This document shows, in pieces, positions 16,608 to 52,024 of a stretch of 64,000 bases of DNA. The DNA is from a virus. How positions within the stretch are numbered: position 1 is the first letter of the stretch; the number at the start of each line of letters is the position of its first letter. A program made the translations under genes and the position numbers. The notes under the pieces are model-generated. The model had not been told where the DNA came from and made no database searches. It was given only the letters and a program-made list of their open reading frames with translations. The stretch lies in the IMG/VR virus record IMGVR_UViG_3300048929_000179, positions 21,882 to 85,881 of that record; one strand, written 5' to 3'.

Positions 16608-17492
16608 TTATTTAGCTAAACCTTTGTATTCTAGCGATCCGTCATTCAACGTCGAAACTAATACTTTACCTGTAACCATTTTACCGTCAGCATCTACAGC
16701 GTAAATCTTACCATCGTCAGCAACAAACTGTGATTTGCACATTACGCCATCTGCGCCGAGGAAATACCACTCGTTATTATACTGATACCACACGTTTGCT
16801 ACCATCATTCCCGCAGCATTGAACCAGTACCACTTGTTCTCAATTTGTACCCAATCGTTCCGTACAGGCAATCCGGTGTCGCCGTTGTAATATGACCAAC
16901 CTTCAGGAGTCTGCATCCAACCGGATTTCTTTTCTTCTGGAACTGGAGTAGCGGGAGATGATAGAGCAGCTTTAAAATCAGCCCATGTATGTTTTGTATG
17001 ATTATATACATATGGGTTTGGGCAGATCTTTCCGGTAACATCGTAATGTCGAATTACGCGATCCGCAGGTATATTATATCTTTTCATTAGTTCTTTGGTT
17101 AATTCAATAGCGGACTGTACAGTAGCATCTTCAAAATACCAGTCCTGACTTGTATCGGCTTTGTTACTATTATTACGAACACACATTTCAATGCTCACAC
17201 AGTTTGTATTTTTTGCAATTCCGTATAACGATCCGCCACCATTCGATAATTTCTTTCCACCCACTGCCCAACAATATCTAGCTACAGGATCGGGATTATA
17301 CTGCCAAATATCACCTGAGAATCCTACATAGAAATCAGCAGAAGCATTTGTTGTTGTTCTCTGATTGTAGTAATTTATATTTGCTTTAGCGTCCCCAGTA
17401 GCTCCAACGTAATGTATAACTATGTATTCTATTTTACCTGGGCGCACAGATGTATTGTGTGTGCCGAAATTAGGATTTTGATTAATGTACAT
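16608..17492 (-). CDS. endolysin: N-acetylmuramoyl-L-alanine amidase (Amidase_2) with cell-wall-binding repeats
   Basis: IVIHY, SIEMC, IRHYDVTGKICP; WYWFNAAG/WYFLGADG repeats; true start ATG 17492 after GAAAGGAG. Confidence 0.9.
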   Translation of the reverse strand: MYINQNPNFGTHNTSVRPGKIEYIVIHYVGATGDAKANINYYNQRTTTNASADFYVGFSGDIWQYNPDPVARYCWAVGGKKLSNGGGSLYGIAKNTNCVSIEMCVRNNSNKADTSQDWYFEDATVQSAIELTKELMKRYNIPADRVIRHYDVTGKICPNPYVYNHTKHTWADFKAALSSPATPVPEEKKSGWMQTPEGWSYYNGDTGLPVRNDWVQIENKWYWFNAAGMMVANVWYQYNNEWYFLGADGVMCKSQFVADDGKIYAVDADGKMVTGKVLVSTLNDGSLEYKGLAK

Positions 17493-17530
17493 TTTAATTA
17501 CTCCTTTCTGTTTGTATTTTCTCATTATAG

Positions 17531-17615
17531 CGGTTGAGGTAGGATTTGAACCCACGGTGCGGTTAAACACATCTATTTTCAGGACAGACATCATAAGCCT
17601 CTCGATCACTCAACC
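17531..17615 (-). tRNA. tRNA-Ser(TGA), no encoded CCA, atypical C33
   Basis: GGTTGAG/CTCAACC acceptor stem, G73, anticodon arm TCTGT-CCTGAAA-ATAGA, long variable arm, TTCAAAT T-loop. Confidence 0.8.
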
Positions 17616-17619
17616 GGAG

Positions 17620-17704
17620 CGTCGTGTGCAAGAGTCGAACTTGCAAGTCAAATTAATGACCGACAGATTAGCAATCTGTTCCAATACCATTATGGGAACA
17701 CGAC
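17620..17704 (-). tRNA. tRNA-Ser(GCT), no encoded CCA
   Basis: GTCGTGT/ACACGAC acceptor stem, ACAGA-TTGCTAA-TCTGT anticodon arm, long variable arm, GCAAG-TTCGACT-CTTGC T-arm. Confidence 0.9.
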
Positions 17705-17798: not shown

Positions 17799-18824
17799 TT
17801 AAGTAAATAATTCATCAGCTTCTTCGCCTTCATCTAAACCTATGACATAATGCTGAAGAGTTGTTTGCGAGCTTTCGTGTCCCAAGAGAGCTTTGGCTGC
17901 TTCTACGCTTTTACCTTGTGCTACCACAATGTCAGTTGCCGCGCTTTCACGGAGAGCATGTGGATGGAAGCGTCTTCCAAGTATAGGTGTAAATATATCA
18001 GTTCCCCATGTATTAAAAGTTCCTTCTGCCACCTGTTTTATCTGCCCACCATAAAATACTGTAAATAAATATGGACAGTCGTCATCTCTTTCATTTACCC
18101 ATTCTTTTATAGCGTCCATGGAATAATCTGAAAATTTTAATCTTCTTGGCTTGCCACTTTTACCATGCCCTTTACATCTAATGATCGGAGTTTGATAATA
18201 TTTCGCTGGCTTTTCAATGATATTCCCATTTTTGTCTTTAACCTTTGTTGCCTTTTCTACTAATTCTGTTTCAACAATATTTTTTAATATTTGTCTTGTC
18301 TCAGCTCTACGACAACCAGTTTCAAAGGTAAATTTTAAATAAGCAATCAATTCTTTTTTATTCTTGCGTTTTGATTCTTCGAGTTTTTGACACATCATTT
18401 CTATTTCTTCCCTTGTAGGCGGAACCTTTTCATGAACAAGCGCCTTTTCTGGCTTCTTAATGCTTTTATTAATAAAATTATGAAACATTGGGTATATATC
18501 GCAGTAGTAAACAACTATGTAATTATTTAATGTGCTGATTGCTGATCTTTTATTTGAAATATCAGAAGATGAGTGACCTAACCCAAGCAACCAGTTTTGA
18601 TACCTCAAATATTCTCTCGGCTTTATGTCTGTAATTAATTTATCATCAAGATTATCATGAATCCAGTTTAACCAGATACGACAATTAGAGGTATAAGCTT
18701 TTAGTGTTTTATCCGAAAGTTCTGTCGAGTTCATTAAAAAATCTTCTAGTAATTCCCTATTCTTTGGATTACACTGTAAATAATCATTTTCTGTCATTGG
18801 AGTTAATGCTTGTATAGTAATCAC
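17799..18824 (-). CDS. tyrosine recombinase (late-region; SPbeta YomM-like)
   Basis: GCRRAE (R), RCKG (K), HPHALR (HxxR), LLGH (H), QHY (Y): complete catalytic set. Confidence 0.9.
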   Translation of the reverse strand: MITIQALTPMTENDYLQCNPKNRELLEDFLMNSTELSDKTLKAYTSNCRIWLNWIHDNLDDKLITDIKPREYLRYQNWLLGLGHSSSDISNKRSAISTLNNYIVVYYCDIYPMFHNFINKSIKKPEKALVHEKVPPTREEIEMMCQKLEESKRKNKKELIAYLKFTFETGCRRAETRQILKNIVETELVEKATKVKDKNGNIIEKPAKYYQTPIIRCKGHGKSGKPRRLKFSDYSMDAIKEWVNERDDDCPYLFTVFYGGQIKQVAEGTFNTWGTDIFTPILGRRFHPHALRESAATDIVVAQGKSVEAAKALLGHESSQTTLQHYVIGLDEGEEADELFT

Positions 18825-22090: not shown

Positions 22091-23533
22091 TTATAATGAG
22101 AATTTCAAACTTGAATTTGCAACGACTACTCTTGTAGATTTACACTTATTTTCTAATTCTTTTTTCAATGCAGTAGCCAATGTTTCTTTCGCTTCCTTAC
22201 TTCCATGATGCAGCACAATCTTATTGCAATTTACAGATGAATAAATATTCACTAATTGATCAAATGGAGCATGACCAGACATACTTTTTAAGCTATACGA
22301 ACTACATCTGCAATTATATTCTTTTGCGTCAATAGTAATAGTTTTTCTCTTATTGTCTTTTAACATGCTTGCAAGACTACCCTCAGTGCTAAAACCTACG
22401 AATAGGATAGTAGCATTAGGATTACAGACCAAAGACTTTAAATGATGACGTATGCGTCCCACATTACACATCCCGGCTGTACTCATGATGCAGCAAGGTT
22501 CAGTAGAAGATACCAATGCTTTGCTTGCTTCTGGTTCTTTTACAAACACCAAATTATCCCATTTAAGCATTTCATCAAATTTCTTCTTATCCTCACCTTC
22601 CAATATTTCCGCATAATCCTTGAATATTGAAATTGCAAGAGGAGAATCAATATACAACTTTGGTTGCCATGGTTCATCTTTGTAGAGTTCATACACCATT
22701 AATGCCAACTGCTGAATTCTGGACTGAGCAAATGACGGAATAAGTACCCTTCCGTTCATTTCTTTAATCTGTGTATCGATGATTGATTTTAGCTTATTCA
22801 AATCATTTTCACGCTCTTTTTTACCAGTTTTGAGATCAGGTCTATCGCCATATGTAGATTCACCAATCAGTAAATCACATGATGTCACTGGCTCAAATTT
22901 ACCGACAAAATAATTATCTATATCTTTATTTCCAATATCACCCGTATAAACGATTGTCTTTGTTAATCCACCAACCGTAATATACAAAACAATCTGGCAG
23001 CTATTAAGCAAATGGCCGCTGTGGACAAACATGAATGACAGCTCATCATCTATCGTGACTTTCTGGTTAATTGGTCGTTCAATAGTGTATTCAAGCATTG
23101 TATTTACGTCTGATATATCATATAATGGACTATAATTCTTATTATTTTGAGTGTTTATAACGAAGATATCGCGCTCTGCAATATATGCTGAGTCACTTGC
23201 CATAGTCTTAAATACACCTTTTGAGTTCGCAGGAAGAACCGTAGCCCCTCTGAACCCATCTCTGTATAACTTTGGTACAGCAAGACAGTGATCTCCGTGT
23301 AAATGAGATATGAATACTAAATCAATATCTTTTGCTTTAAATTTCGTTGGTTTTCTATTGTTTACCAAGAAATCTTCGTATTTAGAGTTCGATTGATGTA
23401 AGCCAAAATCAAGTAACAACCTATGATTTGGAGTCTCAACATAAACACAGCTACCCGTTACGTCTTCGCTGGCAGGTTCATCAACAAATGATACTGTAAT
23501 TTTGTCTTTTTTCTTTGCGATGGTCAAAACCAC
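22091..23533 (-). CDS. metallo-beta-lactamase/beta-CASP ribonuclease
   Basis: SHLHGDH, SGHLLNS, YTGD, ESTYG, PSFAQSR, AGMCNVGR, MSGHA. Confidence 0.9.
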   Translation of the reverse strand: MVLTIAKKKDKITVSFVDEPASEDVTGSCVYVETPNHRLLLDFGLHQSNSKYEDFLVNNRKPTKFKAKDIDLVFISHLHGDHCLAVPKLYRDGFRGATVLPANSKGVFKTMASDSAYIAERDIFVINTQNNKNYSPLYDISDVNTMLEYTIERPINQKVTIDDELSFMFVHSGHLLNSCQIVLYITVGGLTKTIVYTGDIGNKDIDNYFVGKFEPVTSCDLLIGESTYGDRPDLKTGKKERENDLNKLKSIIDTQIKEMNGRVLIPSFAQSRIQQLALMVYELYKDEPWQPKLYIDSPLAISIFKDYAEILEGEDKKKFDEMLKWDNLVFVKEPEASKALVSSTEPCCIMSTAGMCNVGRIRHHLKSLVCNPNATILFVGFSTEGSLASMLKDNKRKTITIDAKEYNCRCSSYSLKSMSGHAPFDQLVNIYSSVNCNKIVLHHGSKEAKETLATALKKELENKCKSTRVVVANSSLKFSL

Positions 23534-24031: not shown

Positions 24032-24802
24032 TTAATTTCCTAACTTTTTATAATATGACTTGTTTTGTTCGTTTTTAATATTTTTCGCACAACCACTACA
24101 ATACTTACTACGATTTGATTTTTTTCTTATAAGAATCCCACAACACACACACCTAACAAATTTGCCTTCTCCTTTATACATCATGTATTCATAACCCAAT
24201 TCTCTTAAATCAGATATGTATAATGTAACTTCTCCTTCTAGGTCAATGAAATTAACTTTGATATTTCTATTGGTGTTCTTTTTTGATATAGATATCATAG
24301 GAATCCCGCCATGCGATAGTTTTAATAATTGATTAACCAAATGAAATTTATCATCACTTCTTTTTGATCTTAATCTTGCTGTATTATAAATAAGTGATAT
24401 ATCAGTATTGATCCAACCGTCATTTTTTTCATATATCATATTGTAAGCCTTTGCATAGCACAACATGGTAAATAAAAATCTTTCTAATCTGGCATCTTCA
24501 ACGGTTCCTATTATTTCAATTTCTTTTTTTGTTATTGCAATCTCATCAATTTCATTTAGTTTATACTTATTTGCCTTTTTTGAAATTGATTCAATAATGT
24601 TTTCCCAAAACACCTTATTATAATTTGGATAATTTTTAGACATAAATTCATCTAACTTACGTTCAATTTCATTTTTATTCAAATTTTCTTGATGATAATA
24701 ATATTTTGCCAACAAGAACAGGGTGGAAGAAGGCTTTCTGCCAACTTCTCCCTTATCCAATAAGTTTTTTACATATTTAACTTCATTTAAAATTAGACTC
24801 AT
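24032..24802 (-). CDS. RNAP-coupled protein with C-terminal Zn finger
   Basis: Start overlaps RNAP stop; CVCCG...YCSGC at C-terminus. Confidence 0.7.
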   Translation of the reverse strand: MSLILNEVKYVKNLLDKGEVGRKPSSTLFLLAKYYYHQENLNKNEIERKLDEFMSKNYPNYNKVFWENIIESISKKANKYKLNEIDEIAITKKEIEIIGTVEDARLERFLFTMLCYAKAYNMIYEKNDGWINTDISLIYNTARLRSKRSDDKFHLVNQLLKLSHGGIPMISISKKNTNRNIKVNFIDLEGEVTLYISDLRELGYEYMMYKGEGKFVRCVCCGILIRKKSNRSKYCSGCAKNIKNEQNKSYYKKLGN

Positions 24803-25965
24803 TCATTTTCCTCCGAATCATCAACGTTTATCTCAACCTTTATGTCACATATATCTAATTTAAATTTCTCTCCATTAAATATAATATCTCCATCTTTTGA
24901 TTTGGTCGGATAAGAAATTTTATAGTTGTTTAGTTTCAATAGGTTTTTAATAAAAGTCTTTCCACAAATATCCCATGCGAATTGTTTTGATGCATTATTT
25001 TTATAACACAATTCCAATATGATATTACAAATTACATCTTCATCAGGGCAAGCTATATAACACATGTTTTCAAACGTGCTCCTAATGAGATATCTTTGTA
25101 ATATTCTTTCGTCTGATTTTAATCTCTTACTTTTTGCTTGCAACATATATCTGGAAGAAACTAATTTATATTCTTTATATATTTGCTGAATTTTTTTATA
25201 TAATTCAGGAGAATATGTTACTCCAACACTTTTTAATATTGAATAATCAAACGTTATCTGGTCATTGATCTTTAACTTGTTGTCAAATTTTTTCTCAATC
25301 TTCCAGCAAATTCTATTCACTACACAAGGGTTCATTCCTAGAGGAAAGTGGGTTTCATAGTAATTTAAAAACTCTTCTTCATCGCTATTTCTTTCTTTAC
25401 ACATTTCCAATTCCTCAATTGACTTGTCGAACTTGATCTTACATTTTTCAGAAGTATGCTTGATATAATTCTTATACTCCTTATTGCACTGTGGATAGAT
25501 ATATCTCATGAAATAAGGTTTTTTATCAGCAACTATTTTTTGATTTAAAACTCTGGTTTTCTTTTCATCATTGGTTAGATCAAATGGTTCAAAAGTCCCA
25601 TCTTTGTTTCGTTTACTCAATCGATTTAAAGACCAGTCACTCCAATTACCCGGTATTGGTTTAGCGTCAATTCCTTTTGTCTTGTCAATTGCATTCTGTT
25701 GGTATAACTGCCCGCATTTAATCCTGTAATCAAGTACATTATATTCTCGGCTTCCAGCATGATATTGCGCTTGCACCTCAAACATTGAGGTTATCTTGTT
25801 GGTGGTAGACCCAACGTCGTTCCCAAAACTGTTTATGTTTGATTCGTAAAAATCATCTTCAGTAGGAATGCACTTTGGAGCCTTTCTTTGCACACACACT
25901 ATCGCAGGTAATTGTTGCGTATTCCTGACTATAACGTCCATAGATGTGTTGATTACACAGTCACC
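24799..25965 (-). CDS. yonO: YonO-type RNA polymerase, exon 2
   Basis: After intron removal reads GD-CVINTS-MDVIVRN in frame with the 24799..25941 ORF. Confidence 0.85.
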   Translation of the reverse strand, partial: GDCVINTSMDVIVRNTQQLPAIVCVQRKAPKCIPTEDDFYESNINSFGNDVGSTTNKITSMFEVQAQYHAGSREYNVLDYRIKCGQLYQQNAIDKTKGIDAKPIPGNWSDWSLNRLSKRNKDGTFEPFDLTNDEKKTRVLNQKIVADKKPYFMRYIYPQCNKEYKNYIKHTSEKCKIKFDKSIEELEMCKERNSDEEEFLNYYETHFPLGMNPCVVNRICWKIEKKFDNKLKINDQITFDYSILKSVGVTYSPELYKKIQQIYKEYKLVSSRYMLQAKSKRLKSDERILQRYLIRSTFENMCYIACPDEDVICNIILELCYKNNASKQFAWDICGKTFIKNLLKLNNYKISYPTKSKDGDIIFNGEKFKLDICDIKVEINVDDSEENE

Positions 25966-26304
25966 CTTATTTACCCTCGGTTTCCCGATATTTATTAGGG
26001 GAATAGACTATATCATACCCAATACTCCTATTACCGTCATATTGAGCCTTGGCGCTTCCACAATGGTATTTCACTCACTATGTACTCTACTCGGTTATTC
26101 ACTGCGACATTTCTTCGCAATTATCCTTTCGATAGTCGTTCCACATAAATCAAAGTTTTTTTGATTTTTAGCACGGCGATTAGGAAACTACACCCTCCCC
26201 CGTTAGCACATATTCTAGCTGTCATTTCCTACAGTTCCTATACGTAACATGCACACCCTAGATTTCTAGGTTCACCAAGTTTTACAAGGACAGATATTTA
26301 TCAA
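25966..26304 (-). ncRNA. group I intron (subgroup IA-like, 339 nt, no internal ORF)
   Basis: 5' exon ends in U; P1 AAGGAU/GUCCUU with U.G at the splice site; P7 elements AACGACTAT and GATATAGTCT; P9 TCGG-GAAA-CCGA; terminal G; splicing restores the reading frame and DKDGD. Confidence 0.92.
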
Positions 26305-27936
26305 ATCCTTATCCATACCATTCATCGCTTTATCTGACGTATCCCAACTATTAAAAATAGTAATAGTGGTCATGTATTTGTAAAAATCATTCATTTTGTC
26401 ACTACTTGCGACTTCTAATAATCTGATATTGTTGTGACAGGTCATGGGAGCGCGAAAACTAGCTATTTTATTTACCTTCACATCTATCCAGTATTTAGAA
26501 TAAATTTGACCAGCTTTTAGTAAACCTGTAACTTTGAGTCCAAACATAGATTGACAAAGAGAGTATGGATCCCCACACACCAAAGAATAATTAGCCGGGA
26601 CGGTTAATACCCCTACTTTTGCCTCATCTATTCTTTTGTCTATCATCTTATTTATTTGACTCTGCACATAAGGATCGTTTTTCATTCTCTCATCTATCAT
26701 TAAAGCTGTTGCAAAAGATGAGTCTAGGTGCTGAACAGTCTTACTCGTTAAGTGAGTTCCCTTTGAATACAATATTGTTTTTCTGTAATCTCCAGACAAT
26801 ATATCGTTTATTTCTGATACAGTTGGAGATATCAACTCATCTAATTCTTCATCTGTAAAATTATAACTCTGCAAAAATTGGTAATTCATATTCCTTACAT
26901 TTTCTAATTTTTCTTCAGCAATCTTTGTAATCGCAAAATCATAATGATTCTTCTTACAGTTATGTAAATATGTATATATCGAATGATAAGAATCCCACAG
27001 TTTGAGCATAGATTCAGTTAAAATCAATTCTATATTCTTGATATGATGCCAAGTTCCCCATACATCTTGAATATATTTTATGCTTCTATCATGTGCGAAT
27101 TTTTGAAAATCGATGCAAAAAACAGCGCCCTTACAAAAACTGTTTCTTATAACACAACCTGGCAACACGTAATCTTCTCCAAGTTCTTCTCCCCAACGTC
27201 GCATTAATGAAGGCATAGCCATACCATATCCATCACTATCAATCAATTCAATTGGCTCATCTTTTTTAAATATCATTTTTGGCTGATCAACGTCAGTATC
27301 ATCTAGCATAATTACATCAGAAGTAAAGTGCGTAATACTGTCATGAACGACACATATACCTTTTGGATTAGACACCGGAGTTGATGCACTACAAGTCAAA
27401 GATTTATAGGCTTCTAATTTTGCAGGAGAAAATTCTTTCGTTTCATCCCTTCCATTGTTTATACGCCGTCTAATCTCGCTTGCATGCTTTTCGCTTATAA
27501 ACACAATTGTTTCGTTTTTTACCCCACCAGTTGTACCGAGTAATCTCACATATTTCACGTTATTTAATTCAAATCCATTTAAATGCAATTTTTCAAAATC
27601 TGATATTTTATCAATTACAATGCATACATAATCTCGCTTGTATAGTAAATCATCAAGCTCACTCAAAAGCACTTTGATTTCTTTTTGTGTTTTTTTGATA
27701 TCATCATCATATTTTAATTTTTTTATCTTATCTTTTAAATACTCGGTGTATATATTAGGATTTTTAATATTATTCAGTTCATCTAACCAGCGAAGCATTT
27801 GACTATCATTCAGTGAGATAAGTTCATTATTCTCCCTCGCTTGGCTAATTGTCAAATTTAGTTTCCAGTCATTTCTTCTTAATCTAGCTGAATGAATCTT
27901 TAAAACAAATCTTGGAGACACTTTTGCTTTACTCAA
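26305..27936 (-). CDS. yonO: YonO-type single-subunit (double-psi-barrel) DNA-dependent RNA polymerase, exon 1
   Basis: DGYG, CKGAVF, FRAP and NGMDKD| motifs; spliced product about 932 aa with DxDGD; upstream of HU and head genes as in SPbeta. Confidence 0.88.
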
Positions 27937-29332
27937 TCAAACTTCCCCCTTTTGTAGACGCAAATACGTATCTTAACTTACAACCTATCCCATCATAATT
28001 TAATACGTTTTCATATATTTTTTTCATTGCTTTTGTTATTTTATTAATAAAAATTTTGTAAATATTTTCATATGTAAAATCAAATTTTTTATCAATAAAA
28101 TCATGATATGTTATGAAATCACGGGCAAAATTGGAGACACTACAATTTTCTTTTATACCAATTTTAAAAGTTCCTGGTGCATTGATTGTAAAATACCAAA
28201 TACAATCTTCAGCCTCAAATATTTTTGATACATCTTTTAATACTTTAAGTGATACATCTTCTATTAACTTTTGATTAATAGTAAATTCATTTCTTCGAAA
28301 TATATCATTTTTAATGTCTTTTATTATTTTTAACAATTCAGATGGTCTCAAGATCCATTCCCTTTTATCATTCCATATGTAGTTATGCTGCTTATTACCA
28401 TTAATATCAACATAACAATAGTTTATCGAAATATTTTTTCTCGGCTTTATTTTGCAAATACCAAAAGTTATTCCACTTTTTGTCATATTAAATACGTTAT
28501 TGTTCCAATATTCGATTGACTCTTTATTAATAATGTCTCTAAATGTTTGATTATTTTTCTTTATACACGATTGTCTTTTTAATAAATCAAAGCAAACCTC
28601 CTTATCAAAAATATCTAGACATTTAAAATAATCAAAGACATCTTCTTCTGATACTTCTCCATTTTTATATTTTTGCAATTCACTCCAAAACCAATCAAGT
28701 CGTTCCCACTGAATTTTATAATTCAACTTATCTTGTCTTTTCCATTCGATCTTTCTTTTTGCAATAGTATCCTCGTAGTCTTTATGAGAATAACTTTTGA
28801 TAAAACAATATCCATCGGAGTAGATAAGTTTAAATTCTGGAATATCGTTATTATGTTTTTGATTAATAAATTCTCTGGCATCCACTTCTACGACATCAGT
28901 TTCTAATTCATCCCATTTTGGAATATAATATTCCGTCTTTTTGTTTGAATATTTAATTTCAAAAAAGAATAATTTTCCTTCATCGGTATCTACAATAAGA
29001 TCTGGACGATAATCACCAAAATTTGTATGCAACGTTTTCTCTGTTTGTATGTTAGACACCGTGTATAAGTTGTTGTCTATTTTAAACTTACAACCATTTT
29101 CAAACAGCCAAGTCTTACAAATGTAATGGACAAAACTTTCTTCACTACATCCACCACTCTCATGATAGAAATGAGGCTGAACCTGATATTCTTCATCTTT
29201 CTTATATGCCCTAGGTTTAACAATCCCCTTACAACACGGACAATGGTAGACTACATCAGCTTTCACGTCAGAAATATGTATATAATTGGCTGATTCATCA
29301 AGTGAGTCCAGTCCAACGATTAACTGTGGCAA
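27929..29332 (-). CDS. Zn-finger + PD-(D/E)XK nuclease (CoiA-like N-terminus)
   Basis: YHCPCCK...PHFYH...C; YRPDLIV...FFEIKYS; stop overlaps RNAP start. Confidence 0.75.
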   Translation of the reverse strand: MPQLIVGLDSLDESANYIHISDVKADVVYHCPCCKGIVKPRAYKKDEEYQVQPHFYHESGGCSEESFVHYICKTWLFENGCKFKIDNNLYTVSNIQTEKTLHTNFGDYRPDLIVDTDEGKLFFFEIKYSNKKTEYYIPKWDELETDVVEVDAREFINQKHNNDIPEFKLIYSDGYCFIKSYSHKDYEDTIAKRKIEWKRQDKLNYKIQWERLDWFWSELQKYKNGEVSEEDVFDYFKCLDIFDKEVCFDLLKRQSCIKKNNQTFRDIINKESIEYWNNNVFNMTKSGITFGICKIKPRKNISINYCYVDINGNKQHNYIWNDKREWILRPSELLKIIKDIKNDIFRRNEFTINQKLIEDVSLKVLKDVSKIFEAEDCIWYFTINAPGTFKIGIKENCSVSNFARDFITYHDFIDKKFDFTYENIYKIFINKITKAMKKIYENVLNYDGIGCKLRYVFASTKGGSLIE

Positions 29333-50977: not shown

Positions 50978-52024
50978 ATGAGTGATAAGTATACGGTAGA
51001 AGACTACAAAAAAATGATAGACGATTTTTGTATTTACAAGGGATACACTGATAAACAGAGGGCTTTTTTAATGAAGCCGTACATTTATGAGAAAGATTTA
51101 TTTTATTTAAATGTAAAAGAATATGTTGATTTAATTATTGAAGACATGTGTGGTAAAACTAAGAGTATGCAATATCTTATAGAAAATATTAGTTATATGA
51201 ATCAATTCTTTGAGTGGTGCGTAATCAATGGTTATACATTTATAAATCCGTTTGTTGAATTTGATGCACTATCTCAAAAAACGTTGATTAATATATTGAT
51301 TGAAAATAAGGACATTAAAGTATTATACAAAGAGGATATGCGTAACATAGTAAGTGGAATTGAATATAATAAAAATTATTGTGGTATGTTAGTGTATGGA
51401 TTTTTCGAGGGTATTCGTAATGCAAAAGAGTTTACAAACATAAAAATATCTGATATTGATTTTGATAAAAATACGATTCAGTTTAAAAATAGATTATTTT
51501 ATGGGTCCGAATTACTGTTCTCGTATATAAACGGTTATATTAGAGAAGACGAGTATACCAAAGTGAGGATTTCTAAAGGGAACGTTCTCTTAGACAGTCT
51601 TGGTCTTATATCAATTGATGGACTACTAATCAAAAGTAAAATTTTTAAAAATACAAATATTGAAGAATATGTGGAATCTTTTGATGAAGGTAATAAATTG
51701 GTTATACAGAAAATAATTACTAAAGACGTTAGAAGCACAATACCTCGTCTACTTTCTGTTAGTGGGTCTCATGGTTCTAAATATAACGACATAAATATAG
51801 ATCTGCTTCACAAATCTGGGTTTATAGATTTTGCCAGAAGACAATTATATAATTATAATGACGTTGAGTTTTGTAGAATCTTTACAGAGTATAACGATCG
51901 CAAAAGTGATGAATGGTGTAAAATATTGCAAGAAATAGCTGAAAATTTTGGAGACAACTTAAGAGGTAGTGATGTTAGAAAAATTTATAGACCATATATA
52001 ATGAGTAGTAGATATTATAAATAG
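50978..52024 (+). CDS. degenerate integrase-fold protein, MrpR (YopR)-like repressor candidate
   Basis: FEGIRNAKEFTNIKISDIDF box I; HxxR replaced by LHKSG; no recognisable box II H/Y; follows a recombinase gene as in SPbeta. Confidence 0.6.
   Translation: MSDKYTVEDYKKMIDDFCIYKGYTDKQRAFLMKPYIYEKDLFYLNVKEYVDLIIEDMCGKTKSMQYLIENISYMNQFFEWCVINGYTFINPFVEFDALSQKTLINILIENKDIKVLYKEDMRNIVSGIEYNKNYCGMLVYGFFEGIRNAKEFTNIKISDIDFDKNTIQFKNRLFYGSELLFSYINGYIREDEYTKVRISKGNVLLDSLGLISIDGLLIKSKIFKNTNIEEYVESFDEGNKLVIQKIITKDVRSTIPRLLSVSGSHGSKYNDINIDLLHKSGFIDFARRQLYNYNDVEFCRIFTEYNDRKSDEWCKILQEIAENFGDNLRGSDVRKIYRPYIMSSRYYK

Follow-up and report, generated by a model that had tools for sequence, protein, structure and literature searches.

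The gene of a YonO-family RNA polymerase in an SPbeta-like phage is interrupted, with a probability of roughly 0.9, by a group I intron located between the codons of the second Asp and the Gly of the Mg-binding motif DKDGD. The window analysed here is the whole 64,000-nucleotide stretch of viral DNA, and the gene lies on its minus strand in two parts. The intron is real and unannotated, but it is an unremarkable case of a genetic parasite that is well known from phages. The parts of the gene and its downstream neighbour are as follows.

26305–27936, minus strand: exon 1 of the YonO-type RNA polymerase gene; TTG start, 544 aa, ending ...FRAPMTCHNNI...AMNGMDKD; based on PHROG 25339 (E 7e-175) and tblastn matches to c-st, Enterocloster phages and SPbeta-like yonO
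26272–26274, minus strand: UGA closing the exon-1 frame, within the P3 5' strand, 10 codons into the unspliced intron
25966–26304, minus strand: predicted IA-type group I intron, 339 nt, ORF-less
24799–25965, minus strand: exon 2, 388 aa and a stop codon, starting GDCVIN; based on PHROG 35857 (E 4e-66) and tblastn
24032–24802, minus strand: downstream gene, 256 aa, overlapping the polymerase stop codon

Intron boundaries and proposed splicing mechanism

In the minus-strand sequence of 25800–26500, exon 1 ends with ATG GAT AAG GAT (M-D-K-D), its last base being 26305, and exon 2 begins with GGT GAC (G-D) from 25965. The 339 nt between them (26304–25966) run from TTGATAAAT... to ...GGGTAAATAAG on the minus strand. 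Joining the 544 and 388 residues gives a stop-free translation of 932 aa with ...NGMDKDGDCVI... at the joint, and the predicted spliced junction is GATAAGGAT-GGTGAC. Such a joint appears far beyond chance, and it is fixed independently by collinear intron-less homologues and intron-less contigs. The first-pass annotation had reported a 339-nt insert at these boundaries whose removal creates DKDGD. The sequence is as claimed, and the intron-less homologues and contigs agree with it. A single ORF of about 932 aa had also been described; the stop-free join bears this out, but the C-terminal end of YonO is found here in the separate 256-aa gene.

According to the ORF list of the insert (25966–26304), no ORF is present on the sense strand. 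The only ORF is an antisense frame of 98 aa (25868–26164, plus strand), which has no Pfam or family match, and with this one exception the earlier statement that the insert has no internal ORF is correct. Two other kinds of element were considered for the insert. An intein was ruled out by the lack of an ORF in the insert, and a group II intron or IStron was ruled out by the wrong size, the lack of matching motifs and the lack of a transposase.

In the proposed mechanism, the exon sequence AAGGAU would pair with the guide GUCCUU in the pre-mRNA, and P1 would be formed. A free guanosine in P7 would attack after the wobble-paired U at 26305. The terminal G (25966) would then take the same site, and the 3'-OH of exon 1 would attack the 3' splice site. 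As a result, GAU would be joined to GGU, restoring one 932-aa frame. The unspliced RNA would give a 554-aa product without the third Asp and all downstream residues; because of this loss, the polymerase would need splicing. Both self-splicing and its efficiency are inferred. The intron itself would be a selfish mobile element, with its homing endonuclease gene missing here, aimed at the most conserved DNA of the gene. Because it would be removed by splicing, it is proposed to be neutral to the phage.

Homologues and alleles without the intron

The spliced protein was aligned by tblastn with 80 IMG/VR loci that contain relatives of exon 1. In 76 of these 80, the alignment bridges residues 544 and 545 without a break, and in 68 no interruption occurs anywhere along the protein. 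Among the GenBank phages, Enterocloster phage PMBT24, Bacillus phage BUCT082 and Enterocloster phage CB473P1 are continuous at the joint. PMBT24 and CB473P1 read ...NGCDFDGD... at this place, whereas BUCT082 diverges (DFDYD).

Natural alleles were detected in Logan contigs from two DNA runs of other studies, an anaerobic digester run (X3) and a metagenome run (X4). These contigs are about 93% identical to the window, and 26305 is joined in them to 25962. The coding strand has GGA between these two positions, a synonymous Gly codon for GGT. The contigs are thus intron-less alleles from which exactly 25966–26304 is absent. A survey of YonO homologues for intron-plus and intron-minus alleles had been suggested, and both kinds were found.

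These data bear on the reading that the gene is naturally two polypeptides assembled without splicing, like the split RNA polymerase subunits of jumbo phages. In its favour, GenBank lists the halves as separate CDSs in c-st and several Enterocloster phages, PHROGs has separate families for them, and the ATG at 25941 could open a frame of 380 aa. This frame, however, would drop the GD and 8 residues, and a split here would divide a single metal-binding loop, with its Asp residues on one side and Gly-Asp on the other. The sequence between the halves is not intergenic DNA that offers a ribosome-binding site but an RNA that is conserved, covaries and resembles a ribozyme. Single chains predominate among the homologues, which contradicts the possibility, raised in the first-pass annotation as a potential refutation, that two polypeptides are the normal state. 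We therefore regard this reading as extremely improbable.

With the intron as the preferred reading, the two 'hypothetical' ORFs of the window are to be annotated as one polymerase gene, and the same holds for c-st, the Enterocloster phages and many metagenomic phages. In the GenBank records of c-st, the Enterocloster phages and phi3T, the gene pieces are annotated as separate ORFs (in c-st and the Enterocloster phages as hypothetical ones, not as introns), and gene callers and PHROGs currently put the two halves in separate families. In the literature on YonO, SPbeta relatives and two-barrel polymerases, no mention of an intron in yonO or its homologues was found.

RNA structure and assignment to group I

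The predicted elements of the intron are listed here in 5' to 3' order of the RNA.

26305–26310, minus strand: P1 5' strand AAGGAU, the last six exon bases; the U at 26305 is in the U.G wobble at the 5' splice site
26286–26291, minus strand: internal guide GUCCUU, the P1 3' strand, intron nt 14–19
26273–26279, minus strand: P3 5' strand CUUGGUG, pairing with 26048–26054
26206–26270, minus strand: two peripheral hairpins from P3 to J3/4, with compensatory changes across the family; the first is CCUAG-AAAU-CUAGG (P3.1-like), the second GUGCAUGUU...AAUAUGUGC with the distal stem CUGU/ACAG
26147–26202, minus strand: P4–P6 domain; P4 CGGGG/UCgCCG, P5 GGG/UCC, P6 AAAUCAAA/UUUGAUUU
26132–26137, minus strand: P7 5' strand GACUAU (R element ACGACUAU)
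26059–26130, minus strand: P7.1 (with UUGCGA/UCGCAG) and P7.2 (CAUAGUG/CAUUGUG), covarying hairpins, intron nt 173–246
26048–26054, minus strand: P3 3' strand CGCCAAG, between P7.2 and P8
26018–26046, minus strand: P8 hairpin CUCAAUAU/GUAUUGGG
26006–26011, minus strand: P7 3' strand AUAGUC (S element GAUAUAGUC)
25966–26001, minus strand: P9, CCC...GGG around UCGG-GAAA-CCGA, and the terminal G at 25966

The order in the intron is thus P1, P3 5', two peripheral hairpins, J3/4 (UAA), P4-P5-P6, P7 5', P7.1/P7.2, P3 3', P8, P7 3', P9 and G. The P1 helix claimed earlier was found as a clean 6-bp pairing of AAGGAU with GUCCUU, with U.G at the splice site. The P7 elements, the GAAA-capped P9 and the terminal G, which had also been claimed, are all present. 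An exon ending in GAT precedes every same-site intron, and the GUCC guide is kept in all of them. The terminal (omega) G at the 3' splice site (25966) is shared, as eight of eight same-site introns end in G. P10 is weak, with at most 3 bp by eye.

For the comparative analysis, a family of ten members was used: the introns of the window, loci L013 and L020, MT835481, CB457P1 and CB473P3 at the DxD|GD site, together with the phi3T yonO intron, the second-site introns of CB457P1 and L052, and the DNA polymerase intron of BSP10. P3 is paired in 67 of 70 cells (96%) with seven different strand sequences, and four of its seven pairs show compensatory changes. As a control, the 3' strand was slid by 1–4 nt, and only 21–53% of the cells were then paired. 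The P7 pairing GACUAU/AUAGUC is compensated in phi3T as GACCAU/AUGGUC. Using five relatives, RNAalifold gave 40 pairs, in 23 of which both sides have changed with the pairing kept, and it independently predicted P3, the hairpins after P3, P7.2, P8 and P9. The centroid fold of the single sequence recovers P3, P4-P5, P6, P7.1a, P7.2 and P8, and the window intron folds better than its shuffles (z = -2.3). P3 is poorly paired in the same-site intron of CB457P1, from which it follows that activity is not required of every family member. A different P3, UAUGUGCU/AGUACAUA, was taken from the Rfam alignment and then dropped, since its 5' strand covaries with an upstream strand as a local helix; the true partner strand of P3 was found after P7.2.

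A search of the window with the Rfam model RF00028 at the gathering threshold found no intron. The score is 14.7 bits against a gathering score of 50, with E 0.53 in a 900-nt search. The alignment nevertheless spans the whole model, and the consensus blocks of P4 (P/Q) and P7 (R/S) are matched, while the large P7.1/P7.2 and pre-P4 segments are counted as insertions. The search with group I models proposed in the first-pass annotation gave this alignment, with a score below the threshold. The low score is treated as a limit of model sensitivity and not as a defining feature. The group I assignment made there is upheld by the comparative structure, the similarity to gene-interrupting phage sequences, the shared site and the intron-less alleles.

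The P7.1 and P7.2 helices are marks of subgroup IA. Because predicted P7.1/P7.2 helices lie between the P7 5' and P3 3' strands, the window intron is assigned to subgroup IA (phage type). These peripheral helices define the subgroup (PMC3984707). A helix at the position between P3 and P4, named P3.1, is known as an optional element (PMC3873408), and for this reason the extra hairpins before P4 are no new feature.

The weak P10, the low Rfam score and the missing endonuclease gene would also fit a decayed intron that is non-splicing or depends on a host factor, the polymerase gene being then a pseudogene or poorly expressed. However, every core pairing is preserved, and P1 forms a clean helix of 6 bp that includes a U.G pair. 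The changes in the family are compensatory and not disruptive, and both exons are long open frames in which every invariant residue is kept. Decay of the intron is accordingly judged improbable.

Other introns at the catalytic motif and mobility

Six other inserts were found at exactly the DxD|GD position. In named phages these are 317 nt in Clostridium phage c-st, 531 nt in Enterocloster phage CB457P1 and 433 nt in CB473P3; the others are 948 nt in the faecal contig MT835481, 368 nt in the IMG/VR locus L013 and 897 nt in L020. All six have an exon ending in GAT before the insert, a terminal G, and GGnGA after it. The introns of L020 and MT835481 have HNH_3 ORFs in the P6 loop, and NUMOD4 is also present in MT835481. 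The window and L013 introns have a short P6 where the relatives hold the HNH gene. The c-st CST179/CST178 genes, CB457P1 and CB473P3 share the insertion point in orthologous genes with the window. They differ from it in that the 5' half of the c-st intron is different, and in that the introns of CB457P1 and CB473P3 are longer and a second intron is also present.

The motif is interrupted at neighbouring positions as well. The L048 locus has an intron at D|KDGD, and L081 has a different intron 8 nt upstream, within the codon before DFDGD (Rfam, 85.6 bits). Unrelated introns strike the DxDGD motif at three different phosphodiester bonds, and a 9-nt stretch of it is the common target of three or more intron lineages. 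The catalytic loop of YonO-type enzymes joins the phage intron targets DNA polymerase, ribonucleotide reductase, terminase and thymidylate synthase, and no new mechanism is revealed by the YonO intron.

The window intron is 82% identical to the L013 and L020 introns, whereas exon 1 is 69–71% identical to the same loci. The exon 1 sequences of L011 and L013 are 95.6% identical, and L011 is without the intron. The PMBT24 and CB457P1 proteins are 98% identical, and the genes differ by two introns. The homing endonuclease gene is absent from the window copy. The intron looks mobile and dispensable, since same-site relatives exist, some with an HNH gene, and near-identical phages are without it. 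Introns driven by homing endonucleases aim at the best-conserved codons of phage genes that are themselves conserved (PMC3984707), and the pattern read from the YonO sequences matches this standard picture.

The first-pass annotation had suggested that splicing could serve as a checkpoint for late transcription. In this form, the intron would be an adaptive regulator added to the main reading, and guanosine-, Mg- or translation-dependent splicing would gate or time the late genes. An active polymerase would indeed be impossible without splicing, as the frame stops 10 codons into the intron, and the late genes of SPbeta are driven by YonO (PMC5467207). Against this, the intron is absent from the contigs of about 93% identity and from the 76 continuous homologues, and near-identical sister phages differ in it (PMBT24 vs CB457P1, 98% aa; L011 vs L013). 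Unrelated introns at three bonds of the motif, some with HNH, form the pattern expected of homing-endonuclease targeting and not of regulation. Because the intron-less alleles are the majority, also in near-identical phages, there is no sign that the dependence is used for control. The checkpoint is unsupported, and we consider such a regulator unlikely.

A further reading, to which we likewise give a low probability, is that the Mg-binding loop is contested between co-infecting SPbeta-like phages, the intron being a device of competition and timing and not a neutral passenger. The HNH endonucleases of the introns would cut intron-less rivals in the gene of the late-transcription enzyme, and the splicing efficiency would also set the timing of the late genes. 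An ORF-less intron, such as that of the window, would then confer immunity because the target site is disrupted.

A second hot spot was observed about 94 codons downstream of DxDGD, after ...NAID or ...FTID. Inserts of about 1.1 kb are present there in 9 of the 80 loci, and smaller or similar ones in several Enterocloster phages. The loci concerned are L010, L020, L022, L052, L054, L056, L073, L082 and L083; L003, L004 and L007; and L008 (phi3T 51536–51935). The related phi3T/SPR intron occupies the corresponding position. In the window gene, this second hot spot is empty. About 1 kb downstream of the polymerase gene, L010 (9521–10119) and L022 (9726–10321) each have a ROOL RNA gene (Rfam, about 320 bits), followed by tRNA genes; at the Rfam gathering threshold, no match to ROOL RNA was found in the window.

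Relationship to other phage introns

More than 190 phage records, most of them from Herelleviridae of Staphylococcus, Listeria, Enterococcus and Bacillus, contain a sequence 96% identical to the last 50 nt of the intron, which extend from the P7 3' strand to P9. In Staphylococcus phage Romulus (Twortvirinae), the match to this 3' module lies inside an interrupted terminase large-subunit region, beside a gene annotated as 'group I intron protein'. For Bacillus phage BSP10, it falls between the two parts of a split DNA polymerase gene and adjoins an HNH homing endonuclease. Intron nt 155–333 (the 3' half) are about 78% identical, in two pieces, to this split gene. The module (25967–26018, minus strand) is shared while the rest of those introns differs, which suggests that it is shared or exchanged among introns. 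The DNA polymerase gene of BSP10 (L091, about 546–1924 of the locus) apparently contains two consecutive group I introns. One of them ends at locus position 1551, and within a few bases the other, which belongs to the window's family, begins.

The gene-interrupting sequences of Herelleviridae resemble the window intron in the ACGACUAU / GAUAUAGUC P7 elements, P7.1/P7.2, the GAAA-capped P9 and an optional HNH gene in a loop. In contrast, the host gene in the window is an RNA polymerase gene and the lineage is SPbeta-like, and the window intron has two additional hairpins after the P3 5' strand and ahead of P4, and no ORF. For introns in genes of Bastillevirinae, splicing has been demonstrated by experiment (PMC11878797).

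The closest case in a known SPbeta relative is the intron in yonO of phi3T/SPR (KY030782, 51536–51935, 400 nt, unannotated). It belongs to the same family, with 80% identity in shared blocks and covarying P3 and P7, and it resides in the same gene family. Unlike the window intron, it is inserted about 90 codons downstream, after ...NFTID (site B), and not in DxDGD. The multisubunit RNA polymerase genes of jumbo phages also contain mobile introns, e.g. 201phi2-1 gp273/274, as cited in PMC2919709. These are likewise transcription-enzyme genes of phages broken by a mobile intron, but they encode beta/beta'-like subunits, and the site is outside the Mg-binding loop.

The host polymerase gene and its surroundings

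By blastp, the spliced phi3T YonO and the spliced window protein are 28% identical over 503 aa (E 4e-34), and the alignment runs across the joint. Matches were found by tblastn in 24 SPbeta-like records. A search of Pfam, NCBIfam and PDB-chain sequences gave no match for either exon. Across 20 intron-less homologues, R495-A-P...H501 and N539-G-x-D-x-D-G-D show little or no variation. FRAPMTCHNNI and NGMDKDGD are read as the beta'-type barrel signature RxPxxH ... N(A/G)xDxDGD of two-barrel polymerases. An AlphaFold model was made of the intron-less homologue L011, which is 62% identical (aa) to the window protein (pLDDT 85.9, pTM 0.75). The model matches plant RDR2 and fungal QDE-1 (E 6e-18 to 1e-12, TM about 0.47–0.50). 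The next matches are the phage P32/P74 and crAss-like RNA polymerases, and bacterial beta' is matched weakly.

Catalysis by SPbeta YonO requires the Asp triad, and this enzyme transcribes the late genes; DNA-dependent RNA synthesis together with late-gene transcription is known for SPbeta YonO only (PMC5467207). From the homology and the predicted fold, the host gene is assigned to the YonO family of single-chain two-barrel RNA polymerases, with a late-gene role presumed by analogy with SPbeta. The name 'YonO-type' given earlier is justified by the blastp match across the joint, the RAPxxH...NGxDxDGD signature and the fold match to QDE-1/RDR2. SPbeta YonO (Forrest et al., 2017; PMC5467207) is a homologous single-chain two-barrel polymerase with the catalytic Asp triad, from the same type of genome. 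On the other hand, the identity is about 28% (phi3T orthologue), the window protein is about 100 aa longer, and the Cys-rich C-terminal end lies in a separate downstream gene in the window lineage. The last 40 or so residues of the 256-aa gene product (24032–24802) match this end of YonO by blastp (E 3.5e-5), and its c-st counterpart is CST177, annotated as 'YonO-homolog (C-ter only)'.

The ORF upstream of the polymerase gene (27929–29332, minus strand, 467 aa) has no PHROG, Pfam or NCBIfam match. The polymerase gene and its two overlapping flanking genes keep their order in BUCT082, PMBT24 and c-st. The 467-aa upstream or the 256-aa downstream protein could be an accessory part of the polymerase.

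The viral record has 119,956 bp and is estimated to be 78% complete; the genome is of the SPbeta-like type of about 120 kb. It also encodes an integrase, a choline-binding amidase, a terminase and a portal protein. About 500 bp downstream of the polymerase cluster, a beta-CASP/metallo-beta-lactamase RNase-like gene (22091–23533, minus strand) with Beta-Casp and RMMBL domains is located, and it may function in RNA processing in parallel with transcription by the phage itself. Between the integrase gene (17799–18824) and the choline-binding amidase gene (16608–17609) there are two neighbouring tRNA-Ser genes (17530–17704, minus strand; anticodons TGA and GCT).
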